11,521 bases of DNA, taken from the IMG/VR virus record IMGVR_UViG_2657245124_000008. One strand, written 5' to 3'. Below the pieces are notes generated by a model. The model did not search any database. It was not told the origin of the DNA and worked only from the letters and a program-made list of their open reading frames with translations. This document shows, piece after piece, positions 1 through 11,521 of this stretch. Numbering within the stretch: the stretch's first letter is position 1; the number at the start of each line of letters is the position of its first letter. A program made the position numbers and the translations under genes. Source of the DNA: a virus (Duplodnaviria; Heunggongvirae; Uroviricota; Caudoviricetes).

Positions 1-258
1 ATGCAAACCGTTATTTTTGGTCGTCCGGGTTGCCCTTACTGTGTGCGTGCAAAAGATCTGGCTGAGAAATTGAGCAATGAACACGATGATTTTCAGTATC
101 ACTATGTAGATATTCGTGCGGAAGGGATCACTAAAGAAGATCTACAACAAAAGGCAGGTAAACCCGTAGAAACCGTGCCGCAGATTTTTGTCGATCAGCA
201 ACATATCGGCGGCTATACCGATTTTGCTGCATGGGTGAAAGAAAATCTGGACGCCTGA
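1..258 (+). CDS. grxA: glutaredoxin 1 (85 aa)
   Basis: ATG at 1, TGA at 256-258. The product carries the CPYC active-site motif (residues 11-14) and matches E. coli Grx1 almost residue for residue from memory. Followed by a hairpin terminator. Confidence 0.93.
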   Translation: MQTVIFGRPGCPYCVRAKDLAEKLSNEHDDFQYHYVDIRAEGITKEDLQQKAGKPVETVPQIFVDQQHIGGYTDFAAWVKENLDA

Positions 259-269
259 TCGTCTGACAA

Positions 270-300
270 GCCCTCACGTTGAGGGCTTTACTGATTTTTT
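270..300 (+). terminator. rho-independent terminator after grxA (possibly shared with convergent ybjM)
   Basis: Stem GCCCTCA (270-276), loop CGT, stem TGAGGGC (280-286), then a T-rich tract TTTACTGATTTTTT (287-300). The ybjM stop codon on the opposite strand (288-290) lies in the tail. Confidence 0.55.
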
Positions 301-665
301 CTGTGCTGTGGTTTAAACAAACTACTGATAAATAAGAAACACAGTGCCCCCAGCGCACACCAGAACACCGCACTTAATAACCATGCCAGCTCTTGCCAGA
401 ATGAGCGCGTCGGTGAAAAAAACAGCCGCATAATGAGCATCGAACAGGGTGCCGCCAGCATTGCGCCAAACAGAGGTTTCAGGACTTCTCTACGCTGTGA
501 AAAGAAGCTGGCGACTGCTCCAGGAAGAATGAAAAATAGCAAGCCGATTTCAGGATGCCCGGCAGCCCGAAAAGCGCCTTTCATGTGCGTCGCCAGAAAA
601 AGGCACACCACAATGAAGAGGACAAAACAGCAGATTGCCCCCGCCCAACGTTGTTTATGTTTCAC
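288..665 (-). CDS. ybjM: small inner-membrane protein YbjM (125 aa)
   Basis: 125-aa hydrophobic product with several predicted transmembrane segments. Size and sequence match E. coli YbjM from memory, and its position between grxA and ybjL matches the E. coli locus order as I recall it. Confidence 0.8.
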   Translation of the reverse strand: MKHKQRWAGAICCFVLFIVVCLFLATHMKGAFRAAGHPEIGLLFFILPGAVASFFSQRREVLKPLFGAMLAAPCSMLIMRLFFSPTRSFWQELAWLLSAVFWCALGALCFLFISSLFKPQHRKNQ

Positions 666-934
666 TCGTTCCTCCTGACACTGCGTCTATCGAACACATT
701 TTTCGCCAGTGTGGCGTTCAGTAAGATAAAGCCGCTTCGCATTCCATGCTAATATAGGCCAACGCAATTCATATAGCCGTTGATACCTAATGTGATTACA
801 CTAGTAAAATATATTGTTACTTTACTATCGTTTAGGTGCGCTGAATGAATCTGCGCCCTGAATTCTGGTAAAAAACATTATCGTAAATTACCATTTCTTT
901 CAACAGCTTACTAGTAAACAAGAAGTTAGCCTCC

Positions 935-2620
935 GTGAATATAAACGTCGCCGAATTGTTAAATGGGAATTACATTCTGTTATTATTTGTGGTCCTCGCG
1001 CTTGGGCTATGTCTCGGAAAGTTACGACTTGGTTCGATCCAACTGGGTAATTCCATTGGCGTTTTAGTCGTATCGCTGTTATTAGGCCAACAACATTTCA
1101 GCATTAACACCGATGCGCTTAATCTTGGCTTTATGCTGTTTATTTTCTGTGTTGGGGTTGAAGCCGGACCGAACTTTTTTTCCATTTTTTTTCGCGATGG
1201 GAAAAATTACCTAATGTTAGCACTGGTGATGGTTGGCAGTGCGCTGGTGATCGCCTTAGGGTTAGGTAAGCTGTTTGGCTGGGATATTGGCCTGACGGCC
1301 GGTATGTTAGCAGGCTCTATGACGTCGACACCGGTTCTGGTCGGTGCTGGCGATACACTGCGTCATTCCGGCATGGAAAGCAGGCAGCTCTCACTGGCAC
1401 TGGATAATCTGAGCCTCGGGTATGCCTTAACCTATTTAATCGGTCTGGTGAGTTTGATTGTTGGTGCGCGTTACTTGCCGAAATTGCAGCATCAGGACTT
1501 ACAGACCAGCGCCCAGCAAATCGCCCGCGAACGTGGCCTAGACACTGATGCCAACCGTAAGGTTTATTTACCGGTGATCCGCGCCTATCGCGTCGGCCCG
1601 GAGCTGGTGGCCTGGACCGACGGCAAAAATCTGCGTGAACTGGGTATTTATCGACAAACCGGCTGCTACATTGAACGTATTCGACGTAACGGGATTCTGG
1701 CAAATCCAGACGGTGATGCCGTGCTACAAATGGGCGATGAAATAGCGTTGGTAGGCTATCCCGACGCCCATGCCCGACTCGATCCCAGCTTCCGTAACGG
1801 TAAAGAAGTTTTCGATCGTGACCTTCTCGACATGCGTATCGTCACTGAAGAAGTGGTCGTTAAAAACCATAACGCTGTAGGTAAACGTCTCGCACAACTG
1901 AAGTTGACCGATCACGGTTGCTTCCTTAACCGCGTCATTCGTAGCCAGATTGAGATGCCGATAGATGACAACGTCGTGCTTAACAAAGGTGACGTTTTAC
2001 AAGTCAGCGGTGATGCCCGTCGCGTAAAAACCATCGCCGATCGCATCGGCTTTATCTCGATTCACAGCCAGGTCACTGACCTGCTGGCATTTTGCGCCTT
2101 CTTTGTTATTGGGCTGATGATCGGGATGATCACCTTCCAGTTCAGCACATTCAGTTTCGGCATGGGGAACGCTGCCGGGTTGTTATTCGCCGGAATTATG
2201 CTGGGCTTTATGCGTGCTAACCACCCGACCTTCGGTTACATTCCGCAGGGTGCATTAAGCATGGTGAAAGAGTTCGGCTTGATGGTGTTTATGGCAGGCG
2301 TTGGTCTGAGCGCCGGTAGCGGTATTAATAACGGCCTGGGCGCGATTGGCGGTCAGATGTTGATTGCCGGATTGATTGTCAGTCTGGTGCCCGTGGTTAT
2401 CTGTTTCTTGTTCGGTGCTTATGTATTGCGAATGAACCGCGCGCTGTTGTTCGGCGCAATGATGGGCGCACGTACCTGCGCGCCGGCAATGGAGATCATC
2501 AGTGATACAGCTCGCAGTAACATCCCGGCGCTGGGCTATGCGGGCACCTATGCAATCGCCAACGTCCTGCTGACGCTGGCAGGGACAATCATCGTCATGG
2601 TATGGCCAGGATTAGGATAA
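935..2620 (+). CDS. ybjL: putative transporter YbjL (561 aa, AAE/YidE-YbjL type), GTG start
   Basis: 561-aa polytopic membrane protein starting [24 protein letters not shown], matching E. coli YbjL from memory. The start codon at 935 is GTG. Hydrophobic N- and C-terminal halves flank a soluble central region, as in YidE/YbjL proteins. Confidence 0.9.
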
Positions 2621-2732
2621 AACTGAAGTTGCCCTGAAAATGAAATTTTTTTGCACAACCGCAGAACTTTTCCGCAGGGCATCAGTCTTAATTAGTGCCA
2701 CTGCTTTTCTTTGATGTCCCCATTTTGTGGAG

Positions 2733-2776
2733 CCCATCAACCCCGCCATTTCGGTTCAAGGTTGATGGGTTTTTTG
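2733..2776 (+). terminator. rho-independent terminator-like hairpin in the ybjL/prophage junction region
   Basis: Stem CCCATCAACC (2733-2742) pairs with GGTTGATGGG (2760-2769) across a 17-nt loop, followed by TTTTTTG. The T-run is on the plus strand, so this most likely terminates ybjL. The same hairpin read on the minus strand may also terminate ogr. Confidence 0.5.
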
Positions 2777-2855
2777 TTGCCTGAAATTTATGTCGTTTAA
2801 AATCATGACGTTAGAAGCACTGTTTTTTAACGATGGCGACAAAATGGCGGCAGCG

Positions 2856-3074
2856 TCAAAGAGAGAGCGCCACCTGTCCTGATTTCATTGGATGCGGCTG
2901 AACCGGATTTGACTCTTTTGGCGTTGCAATCGAACGAACAAAAGTTTCATGGGTTACAAAAGTATGGCTGCAGTTAATATTCTGGCACTGGTTGTAACGC
3001 TCTTTGGTCAATGAAGATACCTGAAAACTGCTGCGAGTATGGGCGGCACTTCCACACAGTGGGCAAATCATCAT
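2856..3074 (-). CDS. ogr: Ogr/Delta-family zinc-finger late transcription activator (about 73 aa)
   Basis: Product MMICPLCGSAAHTRSS...KERYNQCQNINCSHTF... has the Cys-x2-Cys ... Cys-x4-Cys arrangement and KERY(H/N)QCQN(V/I)NC core of P2 Ogr. The six-frame ORF extends to 3167 only because no in-frame stop intervenes. The internal ATG at 3074 aligns with the P2 Ogr N-terminus and is preceded by GGGAGA. Confidence 0.75.
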   Translation of the reverse strand: MMICPLCGSAAHTRSSFQVSSLTKERYNQCQNINCSHTFVTHETFVRSIATPKESNPVQPHPMKSGQVALSL

Positions 3075-3110
3075 TTTTCGAGTTCTCCCATTTTTGCTAA
3101 ATTCACAATA

Positions 3111-3137
3111 ATGATACCGCATTATTCCATTTTGCAA
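3111..3137 (-). promoter_or_regulatory. candidate sigma70 promoter for ogr
   Basis: Read on the minus strand: -35-like TTGCAA (3132-3137) and -10 TATCAT (3111-3116) with a 15-16 nt spacer, about 35 nt upstream of the ogr ATG. This is a by-eye match only. Confidence 0.3.
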
Positions 3138-3163
3138 ACTTAAAAGTTCTCCATTGCGAAGAA

Positions 3164-4264
3164 TCATTCCATTTCGAAATCATCAATCTTCACTTCGAGT
3201 TCAATACTGGTTGTAAAACCGTTATCCGGGCTGACGGTATGTGTCAGAGTCGTAATGGTCCATTCCGCATCATCTATCGGCTGTTTAAAACCACTGACCT
3301 TCACAGGCATTTCCGTGTAGAGATCTGCCCGCCCTTCTGCCAGTTGTAGCGAAAATGACGCAACGCCGCGTTGCAGGCGTTCCCACTGCATTTTCGCCGC
3401 TCGTTCGGCGTTGCTCCGGTTGGCATAAGTGCGATTAAGTACCAGCACGTTTTCATCCGTACCCACCAGGTAATCGCCCTGCTTCGCTTCTGGCTCTTTC
3501 TTCTGCTTCTTAGTTCTGCGCTTACGCTTCACCGTGGTGCTTTCTTTCTTCGCAGGTTCGCGGGTATGCAACCAGCTGGCAATTACGCCCGTGTAGGCTC
3601 CGCGATCTGCCAGGGTAAATCGGTGACTGTCGCCGTCCTTGCGTGTGATAGTGATCACTGGCAGAGGTTTACCAGTGACGCTTTTGCCCTGCCCCTGCCG
3701 GATGAATAACAGATTGCCATTTTTCACCGACGCGATGGCACCGTATTGTCGCGCCAGCCGCATCAGAAAACTGCCGTCACTCTCATTAGTCTGGTCTATA
3801 TGCTCCACGGGCTTATCCGACAGGTCTTTACCCAGTGCCATCTTCAGCTTGTGCCGCGCGGCTATTTCCTTCACCACTTCCCCGACGGTGGTCTTATGCC
3901 ACGATTTTTCACGGCGGGTATTCAGCGTTTCCCGAAAATCAGCACTTCGCGCCCGGATAGTCAGGCGGTCCGGTGCGCCAGTGTGTTCAATCTCGTCCAC
4001 TGTGAATGCCCCTTTCGGGAAAAGCAGCTGCCCCTTCCAGCCCAGCGCCAGCGTAATGACCGCACCACGGCGCGGCAGCACGATTTTTCCGTCAGCGTCA
4101 TCCAACTCCAGATCAAGCTGGTCCGCTTCAAAGCCCCGGTTATCCGTCAGCGTCAAACTCATCAGGCGGTTATCCAGCACTGTGGTGATATCCCTGCCCT
4201 CAATACTGATGCTGAATGCGGGAGTTTTGTTGCCTTTGTTAAGCAGTTCTGAGCTGAAATTCAC
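3164..4264 (-). CDS. D: P2 gpD-like tail protein (366 aa)
   Basis: 366-aa product with recognisable similarity to P2 gpD, sitting immediately after U and before ogr as in P2. The start is GTG at 4264, overlapping the U stop (GTGA). Confidence 0.85.
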   Translation of the reverse strand: MNFSSELLNKGNKTPAFSISIEGRDITTVLDNRLMSLTLTDNRGFEADQLDLELDDADGKIVLPRRGAVITLALGWKGQLLFPKGAFTVDEIEHTGAPDRLTIRARSADFRETLNTRREKSWHKTTVGEVVKEIAARHKLKMALGKDLSDKPVEHIDQTNESDGSFLMRLARQYGAIASVKNGNLLFIRQGQGKSVTGKPLPVITITRKDGDSHRFTLADRGAYTGVIASWLHTREPAKKESTTVKRKRRTKKQKKEPEAKQGDYLVGTDENVLVLNRTYANRSNAERAAKMQWERLQRGVASFSLQLAEGRADLYTEMPVKVSGFKQPIDDAEWTITTLTHTVSPDNGFTTSIELEVKIDDFEME

Positions 4265-4746: not shown

Positions 4747-7700
4747 GCGTCGTATCCCCCCTGATCGCTGTAGTTACTCCTGGCTTTTGCCTTCAGCCTG
4801 CGTTCACGTTCATCAAGCTGGCGTGCCACCTCCCGCGCAATATCCTGCGCACTTTGTCCTGGCTGCGTCTGAATGATGATCTGCGTCGGTGCCTCAATCC
4901 GTTGAACGAGCGGCACAGTGGCTGCGCGACTCACAATTGCTTCTCCACCTTTCGCGGGAAGTGCCAAAGGGTGCAACGGTGGAAGCTCTGCTGGCGCGGC
5001 AGCAACGCCCATCATTCCGGCAACAACGGCAGCCAGTGCAGCTGTATTTCTCCGGCTGGTCACATTTGCCGGGCCGTTAACAATTTCCGGCCCGTTTTCA
5101 CCGACGATGCCAAACTGCCCGCGCGGGATATACCCGCCGCTGTCATACATCCCCGCAAAGCCATATCCCCATGATGGAAAACCACCCGATGGCATCATCA
5201 CTTTGCCGTCTGCATTCACCGTCGCAGGTTGCTGACGCGTCACGCTTTCCGGTAGTTTTGCCTTTGCGGCCTCTTTACTGACAATGCCGAGTTTCTCCAG
5301 CAACCAGGAAACGCCGGATTTCAGGGAGTCCAGCGGATGCATGACCATATTCAGCCCTTCCGCCAGAGCCTCCCCGAATCGTCGCCCCATTGCCGCTGCA
5401 CTCTGCAGTTCGGCAGAGGTCGACTTAACGGGCGTCAGCAGGTCAGTAAACCAGCCCCACAGCGCCTGCACTTTGTCGCCAATCCACTGGAACACAGGCT
5501 TAAGTGGTTCGAATGCGGCACTGACGGGACCTGCCGCCGCTTTGAATCCCTCCACCACGCCACCGAGAAATGCGGTGATGGGTTGCCAGTATTTCCAGAC
5601 AACCAGCGCCACGCCTGCCAGTGCAGTAACCACTAGACCTATCGGACTGAGCAGAGCACCTAACAGACCAGATATGGCATACAGGGCAACGCGCAGCATC
5701 GCCAGTGGACCAGATGCCAGTACTCGCTGCACCGTACCTGCGGCGGTCAGTCCACCGCGCAGTACCGCCAGAGGATTCATAAACATCACAGCAACCGCAC
5801 GTAAACCGGATAATCCAGACCGCAAAAGTGCAACCGGCGCACCTGCAACAGTTTTCAGGACATTTCCCGTCAGTGATGCCGTACGGCGCAAAGACGACAA
5901 CGGCGCAGTAAGTAAACCCGCTGCGTTACCCGATAAAGCAAGCCCGTGTCGCAGCAGTGCCAGTGGTGCGCCAGCCAGCCAGGACAACGCGCTGCTGGTT
6001 CGTGTTACTGCTGCCGTAACGGAAGGTAACGTTTTGATGCCCAGCACAGAGAATCCCAGACGGATGACTGCCAGCGGCCCCAGCACTGCAGCCAGCGCCA
6101 CAGCCAAGGTGCCGAGGCCGACGGTAACCGCAGCCACAATAGCGGCTACTTTCATCAGTGTGCCCGTCAGTTCCGGGTTAGCTTCCACCCAGCGACGCAA
6201 CGCTCCCGTAACGCTTTTCACCGTGTACAGAATATCCATCAGCGGCTGGCGCAGCGTTTCGCCCAGGCTGCTGAAGGTATTCTGCGCTCCGGTTTTAACC
6301 AGCAACCACTGAGCAGAAAGTGAGTCCTTGTTGATGTCGGATTCTTTCTGCATGGAACCGAGCGCATCATTGCCCGCTGTCAGTTTTAGCTGGCGCTGTA
6401 GTTCCGGCAGGTTGTTTGCCAGTTTCGCCGCGTCATCGCCAAACTCTTTACCAAACAACATGGTCATGGCAGACAGACGCTTGTCCTGCGGCAGTGCGTT
6501 CACCTTCTCCAGCACACGCTGGATAGTTCCCATCGCATCCTTCGTCATCTGCTTTTCAATCACTTCAGGATTGAGTTTCAGCAGATTCATCCCTTCAAAG
6601 AAACTCTTGCTTTGCATGGTGGCAATGGACAATTCACGCACCATCGCGTTTGCTGCACTGGCTGCAACCTCCGGCGCAGCGCCCAGTGTCAGAAAGGTGG
6701 AACCCAGTGCCGCCGCTTTACGATAATCCAGACGGTCAGCCACACCGCCCAGACGTTGCATCACATCAATGATGTCCGCCCCTTTCGACATGGCGTTATC
6801 ATCCAGATAGTTCAGCGCATCGCCGAGCTGTTCAATATTGCGGGTAGGTATTTTGTAGAGCTGGGCGATTTTCCCCAGACTTTCTGACAGTTCATCCGCT
6901 GGCAGCTCAAAGGCTGTTGCCGCCTTTGCTGCCGTACTGGCGAAGGCCAGCAGGTCACGTTTCTGGTCTTCCCAGCTGTCGTCAGGGTCTGCGACGTTCA
7001 TGCGCGCACCACCTTCAACCAGTGCAGCGAAGTCCACCGCACCGTTTTCCATCGGCAACTGTTCGCTGGCAGCCTTGATGGCATCCTGCATTTCATAAAA
7101 ACGTGCAGTACGGTTTCCATTATCGTCACGCAGACCATTGACCTGCTTTGCCACACCTTTCATGGCATCTTCCATGCTGGTATAGCTTTTTACTGCCGCC
7201 ATCACTGGCGTCCCCATTGCCAGCCCTGCAGCCGTGGTAGTGGCTCCGGCTCCTGCAATACGATCGCGCACCTCCAGCGAACGGGCATAACTGGCACGCG
7301 CCGCATTCATCCTGCGCTGAGCTTCACCCAGTCGCTTCAGCCGCGCCTCCTGTTTCGACAATTCCTGGTTATAACGTGATGTTTCACGGGCTAAACGGGC
7401 AGTTGCTCCCGCATCATCTTTCGCAGAAATTCCCGCCCGGTACAGTTCTGCACGCACAAGCGCCGTTTGCTTCTGCAAATATTTTTGTTGTTCTTCCAGG
7501 CGTTGGACTGCCAGCGTTTGCCGACCTAAAGCCACAAGGTGCCGTTGTGATGGTTGTTCCATCGCCTCCAGCTCAGAGCTAAGCAAATTAGCCTTCTGTC
7601 TGGCATAGTTCAGCCTGTCGCCTAACTTCTTGTTATCGGCCTGCAGCTTGCGAAATTTTTCCAGGCTGTTACCCGCCTGATTGAGTTGCTTTAATGCGTC

Positions 7701-10077: not shown

Positions 10078-10095
10078 TGTACCGTTATTCATACA
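10078..10095 (-). promoter_or_regulatory. candidate Ogr-dependent late promoter element (TGT-N12-ACA) upstream of FI
   Basis: TGT (10078-10080), a 12-nt spacer, then ACA (10093-10095). The dyad centre is about 85 nt upstream of the FI ATG, which fits an activator site near -55 with a roughly 30-nt leader. The -10 region is not confidently identified. Confidence 0.45.
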
Positions 10096-10143: not shown

Positions 10144-10566
10144 TCAGGGGGATTCATTGCTCTTATTTGCCGGAAATTTTCTATACATGGTAGAAACGCC
10201 TACATCAAAAATCAGTGCAATACGCTGTCTTGATTCTCCGGCCTCGAGTAAACGCCCAATCTGTGCCCACTGTTCGGTGGTCAACTTAGGACGGCGTCCA
10301 CCTACTCTGCCTTTAGCACGAGCTGCAGCCAGCCCTGCCCTAGTACGTTCGACAATAAACTCTCGCTCCATTTCAGCCAGGGCACCCATCACATGAAAGA
10401 AGAAGCGCCCCATAGGCGTACTCGTATCGATGCTATCCGTCAGGCTCCGGAAGTTAACACCTTTCTCCCGCAGTTCCTCCACTAACCCAACAAGATGTCG
10501 CATGCTGCGACCGAGGCGGTCACGCTTTCAGACCACCAGCGTATCGCCTTCAGATATGCATCCTTG
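10144..10566 (-). pseudogene. Pin/Hin/Gin-family serine DNA invertase, N-terminally decayed
   Basis: The 119-aa ORF (10144-10503) matches the C-terminal two-thirds of Pin/Hin-type invertases (MRHLVGLVEELREKGVNFRSLTDSIDTSTPMGRFFFHVMGALAEMERE..., with the C-terminal helix-turn-helix). Upstream in the same frame, homology continues as ...EGDTLVV*KRDRLGRSM, with a TGA (10528-10530) where the conserved Trp of GDTLVVWKLDRLGRS sits. A TAG follows at 10567-10569 and no recognisable catalytic N-terminal domain is found in any frame. Confidence 0.8.
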
Positions 10567-10666
10567 CTAAACTTAGATCGCCGGTCACCAACTAAGCATG
10601 CAGTATGCGTTATGTTTTTTATTGCTCCCAGGGTAATGTGTCCACTAACTAAACAAGGAGATAGTG

Positions 10667-11218
10667 ATGCTGCATACTATGAATTTCACGGTGCCCGTAA
10701 ATCAGTCCACCGTTAACGCTTTAATTAGCAATTGCCTTGGAGCTATCAATCAGGGGGCGACTGAGTTAAACATTTACATTTCCAGTCCGGGCGGTGACCT
10801 CGTTGCAGGTTTTACTGCTTATCACTTTCTAAAGGCCCTACCAATCCCAGTAAAGACCCATAACCTTAGCAATGTTGAATCAGTCGCTAATATCATTTTT
10901 CTTGCAGGGTCTGAACGTAAGGCGAATCCTGGGAGTCGGTTCTTACTGCATCCTTTTCACTGGGGCTTGATGGGCCCAAGCGTGGATCACTCACGCGTCA
11001 GTGAGTGGGGCGCGTGTCTCAATAATGACCTGGAGCGTTTTGTCGATATTTTGGAGAGTCAGATTGAGCTCAGTAAGAGCCGCAATGAGTGGAAGGAGGT
11101 TATCTCCGCCGCCACCATAGCCAATGCCTCCACAGCTCTGGATTGGGGGATGGTTCACGAGGTTGCCGCCGCCACTTACCCGCAGGCACCCGGCACATAC
11201 TGGTGGATTAACTGTTAA
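10667..11218 (+). CDS. stand-alone ClpP-like (S14-type) serine peptidase, about 183 aa
   Basis: AAGGAG Shine-Dalgarno (10655-10660) lies 6 nt before the ATG at 10667 (the ORF track begins at an in-frame GTG at 10664). The product aligns by eye to the ClpP core: IYISSPGG versus ClpP YINSPGG, Ser72 in ESVAN versus ClpP GQAASMG, and His95 in LLHP versus ClpP MIHQP. It lacks the ClpP N-terminal axial segment and is oriented against the late operon. Confidence 0.7.
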   Translation: MLHTMNFTVPVNQSTVNALISNCLGAINQGATELNIYISSPGGDLVAGFTAYHFLKALPIPVKTHNLSNVESVANIIFLAGSERKANPGSRFLLHPFHWGLMGPSVDHSRVSEWGACLNNDLERFVDILESQIELSKSRNEWKEVISAATIANASTALDWGMVHEVAAATYPQAPGTYWWINC

Positions 11219-11377
11219 CATAATTACCTCTCAAATTTAAATTGGGCAGAGATGCCAGCATCCAGGCTCGCGCCTGGACGATTGTCTGATGATGAAAAGT
11301 GCAGTTTAATCTGTGGCTGGATTATCTGGATGCACTGGAGCTGGTTAATACCTCCAGTGCGCCAGATATTGAATGGC

Positions 11378-11521
11378 CTACTCCTCCGGCAGTTCAGGCC
11401 AGATGACATCCGGTGCGGTGCTGGTATCTGTTGCCGTCACAGCGTCGATATAATCCAGCACAACGTTAAGTCGGGTAGTTTCTTCTTGCGTCAGTTTGCG
11501 CCCGGCCTGCAGCTTTAACTG
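11378..11521 (-). CDS. tail fibre assembly protein (gpG/Tfa-like), C-terminal 47 codons; gene continues beyond the window
   Basis: The minus-strand frame entering from the window edge is open and reads ...RKLTQEETTRLNVVLDYIDAVTATDTSTAPDVIWPELPEE, ending at a TAG (11378-11380). This resembles the conserved C-terminus of tail-fibre-assembly proteins (…D.S.AP.I.WP..P), and the position matches gene G in P2 order. Confidence 0.55.
   Translation of the reverse strand, partial: QLKLQAGRKLTQEETTRLNVVLDYIDAVTATDTSTAPDVIWPELPEE

Follow-up and report, generated by a model that had tools for sequence, protein, structure and literature searches.

A truncated Gin/Pin-type invertase pseudogene, very probably imported with a frozen ClpP-like cassette, in a P2-like prophage of E. 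coli

The window (the whole stretch of 11,521 nt that was analysed) carries what is very probably a non-functional relic of a DNA invertase that was imported into a P2-like prophage together with a frozen cassette containing a ClpP-like gene. The window begins with grxA-ybjM-ybjL, which are followed by P2-like late tail genes on the minus strand (ogr, D, U, the tape measure gene, E, the tube gene FII and the sheath gene FI, which extends to 10001). The invertase remnant is located between FI and a tail-fibre chaperone gene, an interval that in P2 is the Z/fun variable locus. Taken alone, the remnant matters little, as a textbook case of gene decay after the loss of a recombinase's substrate. 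The locus suggests, in addition, that a dead allele can spread horizontally, inactivate intact resident invertases by homologous recombination and lock fibre specificity, and that its vehicle is a small mobile cassette with a ClpP1-like protease gene, found in P2-like, e14-like and other prophages. Of the objects at this locus, the ClpP1-like gene is of more interest than the invertase remnant. The coordinates of all features are collected in Table 1.

Table 1. Features at the invertase remnant locus, in window coordinates
Feature	Position	Strand	Basis
Serine-recombinase (DNA invertase) pseudogene	10144..10557	-	tblastn, Pfam, phrog_125, Gin 3UJ3, PGAP
Residual 119-aa ORF, end of Resolvase (catalytic) domain plus HTH_7	10144..10503	-	ORF list, Pfam
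In-frame TGA for the conserved Trp codon (TGG) of the GDTLVVWKLDRLGRS motif	10528..10530	-	Translation and alignment
5' part of the remnant, apparently the shared 'dead' cassette allele	10342..10557	-	Mismatch map; 100% identity in 25 genomes
3' part of the remnant, apparently from the invertase of the resident P2-like prophage	10144..10341	-	~96% identity to L003
Spacer, remnant to ClpP-like gene	10558..10666	.	No crossover site on search
Upstream region of the ClpP-like gene itself, common to L023; SD AAGGAG	10628-10666		Within spacer
ClpP1-like protease cargo gene	10667..11218	+	Pfam, phrog_94, PDB 9UXT, L003 synteny
Tfa' C-terminal fragment, frameshifted, inverted orientation	11270..11406	+	Frame translations, L003 synteny, PGAP
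3' end of expressed-orientation tail-fibre assembly gene	11378..11521	-	136-aa ORF running past the window

The assignment to the Pin/Hin family that was made in the initial annotation was borne out by profile, structure and protein comparisons. Intact invertases of 184-188 aa, used as tblastn queries, aligned by residues 52-186 only, to window positions 10557-10153 (E 7.7e-82); the remnant corresponds to residues 52-186 of a 188-aa Gin/Pin-type invertase, and codons 1-51 and the start codon are missing. When the stop was read as Trp, Pfam Resolvase was matched at profile positions 61-144/145 (E 8.7e-32), with positions 1-60 unmatched, and was followed in the remnant by HTH_7 (E about 5e-15 to 6.5e-15). 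Matches were also obtained with phrog_125, 'DNA invertase' (2.5e-52), and with residues 53-184 of the Mu Gin structure 3UJ3 (E 1.7e-61). Gin (Mu), Pin (e14), Cin (P1) and Hin (Salmonella) form the Fis-dependent DNA invertase subfamily of small serine recombinases; the remnant is ~75-80% identical to Gin over the C-terminal catalytic part and the HTH and, like gin, pin and cin, adjoins tail-fibre and chaperone genes. It differs from them in lacking residues 1-51 with the Ser nucleophile, the start codon and the proximal crossover site, and in containing an in-frame TGA, and it cannot be a working member of the subfamily. In the Gin, Hin and Cin systems the Fis-bound recombinational enhancer is situated in the 5' coding region of the invertase, and since this region is deleted here, the enhancer is presumably gone as well. 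The interval 10144-10557 is labelled 'recombinase family protein; internal stop; incomplete; missing N-terminus' by RefSeq/PGAP, and the remnant is an ordinary pseudogene of a well-known invertase family, already flagged in public annotation. Such decay is commonplace in defective prophages; pinH of K-12 is a decayed Pin-family gene in a cryptic prophage, at another locus and with other lesions.

Translation of the minus strand gave W*PAI*V*QGCISEGDTLVV*KRDRLGRSMRHLVGLVEEL, which then runs on into the 119-aa ORF (10503-10144). The replacement of a conserved Trp codon by TGA, at 10530-10528, was confirmed by alignment with intact relatives, all three of which (L003, L004 and L005) have TGG in this column. 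The second codon after the TGA is also altered in the remnant (Leu to Arg, CTG to CGT), and three more in-frame stops are located 5' of the TGA (W*PAI*V*). The reported loss of the catalytic N-terminus likewise held: residues 1-51, sought by tblastn with residues 1-60 of three intact invertases as queries, were found in none of the six window frames (best E 0.09, in unrelated places), and the segment with the serine nucleophile (Ser9/10, Y6/R8 region) is absent from the window in all frames. An uninterrupted reading frame with a start codon is lacking in the remnant.

The possibility that the stop and the truncation are assembly or sequencing errors, or that the TGA is read through to give a full-length recombinase, had been raised at the outset. 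No point in support of it was found, and its probability is negligible. A segment of 289 nt over the stop and the breakpoint is 100% identical in 25 complete E. coli genomes from independent projects, which excludes a sequencing error, and an 81-nt subset of it, with the TGA and the breakpoint, is identical in five IMG/VR contigs. Read-through would meet the three extra stops 5' of the TGA, and it could not restore the catalytic domain because residues 1-51 are uncoded in every window frame; an intact N-terminus recoverable by error correction was not found.

High-identity homology (93% to L004/L005) starts at 10556-10557, nine codons 5' of the TGA and 110 nt from the ATG of the ClpP-like gene at 10667. 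The initial annotation had placed the loss of homology about 12 codons upstream, roughly 100 nt from the ClpP-like gene start; the number of codons is nine when judged by high-identity homology. Beyond the breakpoint, a 32-nt patch at 10589-10558 matched codons 38-48 of L004/L005 at 20 of 32 positions across an 8-nt gap, a score equalled by 7 of 5000 shuffles. The patch (10558-10589) may be a degraded continuation of the invertase, in which case the earlier figure of about 12 codons may fit. The same stretch also aligned to the invertase start region of the IMG/VR contig L023 (15/19; equalled by 93 of 500 shuffles), and a vestigial-start-like 'CATGCTTAGTTGG' was matched by 11, 119 and 301 of 500 shuffles against three references.

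The proposal that the remnant is the fossil of a lost invertible tail-fibre cassette was supported by comparison with L003 (NZ_AP027865), a closely related P2-like prophage with an intact 188-aa invertase at the matching position. L003 contains two 26-bp crossover sites of the gix/pix type (TTCTCCCAAACCAACGTTTATGAAAA), at 4767-4792 and 6613-6638, one of which lies just upstream of the invertase and the other inside H, and its gp53-like tip' and Tfa' are arranged in one orientation, opposite Tfa and the fibre gene H. Collinearity between the extended window locus (L001) and L003 reaches to window position 10556 and resumes at the crossover site in H (L001 8414). The flanks of the locus are 92-97% identical to L003, and the sole differing segment is that between 10556 and the H crossover site, where the ClpP-like gene is found at exactly the point at which the second tip, most of Tfa', the proximal crossover site and invertase codons 1-51 would be expected. 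Inverted tail-fibre fragments, which the initial annotation had proposed to look for, are represented by a Tfa' piece of 45 codons with 84% identity to L003 Tfa', its frames reading ...RLSDDEK / VQFNLWLDYLDALELVNTSSAPDIEWP, on which the expressed-orientation chaperone converges. One complete set of tip and chaperone (the H tip and a 136-aa Tfa) was found instead of two. The gix/pix-like sites that had likewise been proposed as a target were absent from the window when it was searched with the exact L003 site and with a degenerate consensus (<=3 mismatches), and L001 has one crossover site versus two each in L003 and L005. The synteny with L003, the Tfa' fragment and the single orphan site together support the reading of the remnant as a relic of an invertible tail-fibre cassette. 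The backbone and position of the two loci, from the fibre and chaperone genes to FI, are alike, and the window locus differs from L003 in having a ClpP-like gene for the second tip, a single site (outside the window) and a dead invertase.

The orphan 26-bp site (TTCTCGCATACCTTGGTTTGGGAGAT) was located inside H at L001 8413-8438, which is equivalent to 12412-12437 in window coordinates and lies outside the window. It is the point at which L003 homology resumes and the shared cassette ends, and it could recombine with sites in other prophages, given another active Pin-family invertase. A resemblance to the crossover site at 13 of 26 positions inside the ClpP-like gene, suggested by MAFFT, was judged to be due to chance.

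The Z/fun locus of P2 is a mixed hotspot for receptor-binding modules, invertases and defence-like cargo (bioRxiv 10.1101/2024.10.15.618418), and fibre segments of P2-like prophages invert in E. coli, including those of EPEC P2-like prophages (PMC4272514). The present locus resembles the exchange of Z/fun cargo ('moron') genes in that a foreign ClpP-like gene stands between the fibre genes and the PF late promoter/FI; it differs in that the cargo is embedded in what was once an invertible segment and moves along with a fixed fibre tip and the stub of a dead invertase.

Two minor observations were made on the genes flanking the differing segment. The tail-fibre assembly gene at L001 7379-7789 (window-equivalent 11378-11788) is designated 'incomplete, missing N-terminus' by PGAP and is nevertheless an unbroken 136-aa ORF (MNASYAVIENGMVVNV...), the ATG of which overlaps the stop of the fibre gene (TAATG); the equivalent gene is annotated as intact (408 nt) in TUM14664 and CT29. 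The 136-aa Tfa is probably a short but functional chaperone that partners the glycine-rich fibre tip. On the other side, a TGT-N12-ACA dyad (TGTATGAATAACGGTACA) is located at 10078-10095 on the minus strand, ~85 nt upstream of the sheath ATG (10001), and presumably represents the Ogr-dependent PF promoter, as it fits the pattern of P2 late promoters. With this dyad in place, the promoter of the late tail operon appears to have been left untouched by the neighbouring rearrangement.

The window matches E. coli strain 1297KP (NZ_CM173856.1) at 100% identity. Among 5426 E. coli genomes, 25 contain the combination of the ClpP-like gene with the identical truncated invertase, and the prophage contexts number at least five. 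These comprise a P2-like prophage at ybjL, represented by one of the 25 cassette-bearing genomes (1297KP), a dacD/sbmC-adjacent prophage (L002), a second P2-like prophage (L016) and e14-like prophages at two sites (L014, and L015 at dusA). In a per-base mismatch map, the remnant had no mismatches to the cassette copies elsewhere from 10557 to at least 10367 (~10342), an interval over which it is ~76% identical to L003. From ~10341 to 10144 its identity to L003 is ~96%, and it departs strongly from the other cassette copies, which places a recombination joint at ~10315-10342. The copies in other contexts each have their own, different invertase 3' half, and the opposite edge of the shared cassette is the crossover site in H (L016, L017, L020 and L021). 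This observed mosaic, together with the differing 3' halves, indicates that the remnant is a chimera of the shared cassette allele and the 3' half of the resident invertase, recombination being the process that we infer behind it.

An origin of the lesion within the present prophage, as the initial annotation implied, is not what this distribution suggests. Across at least five prophage contexts there is no base difference in the TGA, the breakpoint or the ClpP-like flank, and the dead allele was in all likelihood recombined into the prophage rather than made in situ. A transfer in the direction of the P2-like prophage is indicated by the count of one genome in 25 for this context and by the 3' half matching L003. 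Alternatively, the resident invertase might have been truncated here by insertion of the ClpP-like gene and have acquired the nonsense mutation later, locally. This alternative would agree with the position of the remnant, which is exactly syntenic with the intact invertase of L003, and with the ~96% identity of its 3' half to that gene, and it is improbable in view of the 5' 190-215 nt, which agree in every base with the copies in at least four other prophage types, as do the TGA, the breakpoint and the flank on the side of the ClpP-like gene, and which are just ~76% identical to L003. It would also need export from a rare context (P2-like/ybjL, 1/25) to all the others.

At the cassette border in L016 (NZ_CP073719, strain CX12; 1-3800), the remnant borders in opposite orientation on the tape-measure gene and a gene for a tail protein, and that side lacks the genes for sheath, tube and E, which points to a further inversion or deletion there.

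Displacement of the invertible cassette upon arrival of the peptidase cargo, which had been suggested initially, is not a sufficient account of the missing catalytic domain, as cargo arrival need not remove it: in L023, a ClpP-like gene 81% identical to that of the window stands beside an intact 189-aa invertase at 2732-3301 (minus strand). L023 shares with the window just the ClpP-like gene and ~36 nt upstream of it, at ~77% DNA identity, and its chaperone differs. Its single crossover-like site is located in the fibre gene, with none adjacent to the invertase; this 'orphan' invertase may act in trans, or may stand at the first step of decay. More extensive damage was found in other copies: L015 (CT29) has an extra frameshift ahead of the HTH, which is lost; a deletion in L022 fuses invertase codon ~116 to codon ~24 of the ClpP-like gene; and in L024 residues 91-183 are left, distributed over three frames. 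The series formed by L023, L015, L022 and L024 suggests that loss of the second site preceded the decay of the invertase, which, deprived of its substrate, degenerated independently in separate lineages. This order is derived by comparison, with L023 too distant to prove ancestry. Given the little that L023 shares with the window, and its different chaperone, it could have arisen by independent or secondary recombination instead of preserving the ancestral state.

The locus is best accounted for by the following history, in which the relic very probably came in as part of a frozen cassette. A Gin/Pin-type invertase would once have flipped a tail-fibre host-range segment of a P2-like prophage, at the G-to-FI (Z/fun) locus. 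In an ancestral form, probably residing in a prophage of another type, the ClpP1-like gene would have replaced the alternative tip, most of chaperone' and the invertase-proximal site, leaving one crossover site and, we infer, an invertase without a substrate. The latter would then have decayed by the loss of codons 1-51 and the TGG-to-TGA change, in either order. The resulting frozen cassette, consisting of the orphan crossover site, the glycine-rich tip, the chaperone, the chaperone' fragment, the ClpP-like gene and the truncated invertase, would have spread among unrelated prophages by homologous recombination, with two conserved flanks, namely the tail-fibre crossover region and the middle part of the invertase genes. 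In the present prophage the cassette would have overwritten the 5' half of the resident invertase, with the joint at ~10315-10342. The tail fibre would now be locked in one orientation, and the remnant itself is most likely inert.

The inertness of the remnant is deduced from missing signals, which make it most likely that it does nothing. The residual 119-aa ORF is probably not expressed. No Shine-Dalgarno sequence was found for it, its ATG is placed inside a 6-bp hairpin (GTCGCAGCATGCGAC), and the 800 nt upstream of it on the minus strand contain no promoter-like site. Scans for promoters and terminators yielded nothing that would convincingly indicate expression of the remnant, and the native promoter region of the invertase is deleted. 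The initial annotation considered that the surviving ORF could still bind DNA, which is possible in principle, as the HTH is kept, and is left unsupported by these signals and by the frameshift in the CT29 copy. In work of 1987, Bruist and colleagues reportedly found hix half-sites to be bound by the C-terminal domain of Hin on its own.

It could be supposed on this ground that the 119-aa product is made and has been domesticated as a DNA-binding protein, which binds the orphan site or co-resident crossover sites and blocks inversion there as a trans-dominant lock, or which regulates the divergent ClpP1-like gene. The stub would then be a trans-dominant inhibitor that locks host-range switches. 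Besides the reported binding by the Hin domain alone, for which structures of the DNA-binding domain exist (1HCR and others), this idea could draw on the ORF being open with an intact HTH_7 in four of the five contexts inspected. The intactness of the HTH is, however, no sign of selection, because the HTH halves differ from context to context and come from different, recently recombined resident genes. With the CT29 copy frameshifted 5' of the HTH, L022 and L024 more degraded still, the ATG in a hairpin, no Shine-Dalgarno sequence, no promoter-like site within 800 nt upstream and the native promoter region deleted, domestication is very unlikely. The same holds for a weaker variant, according to which the stub would persist as a homology 'handle' for cassette hopping among unrelated prophages.

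The cargo gene encodes a protein of 183 aa from the ATG, or 184 aa from a GTG at 10664, behind a strong SD (AAGGAG), and the product matched the Pfam family CLP_protease (PF00574; 1e-12, 48.8 bits vs a cutoff of 20.2) and phrog_94 (5e-27). The best solved homologue was ClpP1 of P. plecoglossicida (PDB 9UXT; E 1.3e-37), and the motifs ES(73) and HP(96), with the catalytic Ser and His, are conserved in the alignment with this protein; the roles of the Ser and His residues in PpClpP1 have been described (PMC12900304). PpClpP1 is an N-terminally truncated paralogue without ClpX-binding loops that assembles with canonical ClpP into mixed tetradecamers (PMC12900304). The ClpP-like protein stayed below the NCBIfam equivalog cutoffs for true ClpP and for this reason is regarded as a divergent paralogue and not as the housekeeping ClpP. 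Neither this protein nor the invertase remnant matched any PADLOC defence model, and no described function for phage-borne stand-alone ClpP-like genes was found in the literature.

A donor of the ClpP-like gene was sought in a plasmid collection, a phage collection and a one-genome-per-species scan, which returned just 48-69% identical proteins without invertase or Tfa neighbours; the informative intermediates (L022-L024) were obtained from IMG/VR. The 69%-identical protein is from Pantoea. Homologues of the ClpP-like protein are located next to arc/antirepressor genes in P22-like and other E. coli phages, and in EC.P3, phiv205-1 and PhiR12_x proteins with 51% identity directly follow an 82-aa Arc/Mnt-like gene, by the arc and antirepressor genes. 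A possible role of the ClpP-like gene is that of a phage moron, modulating the Clp proteolysis of the host.
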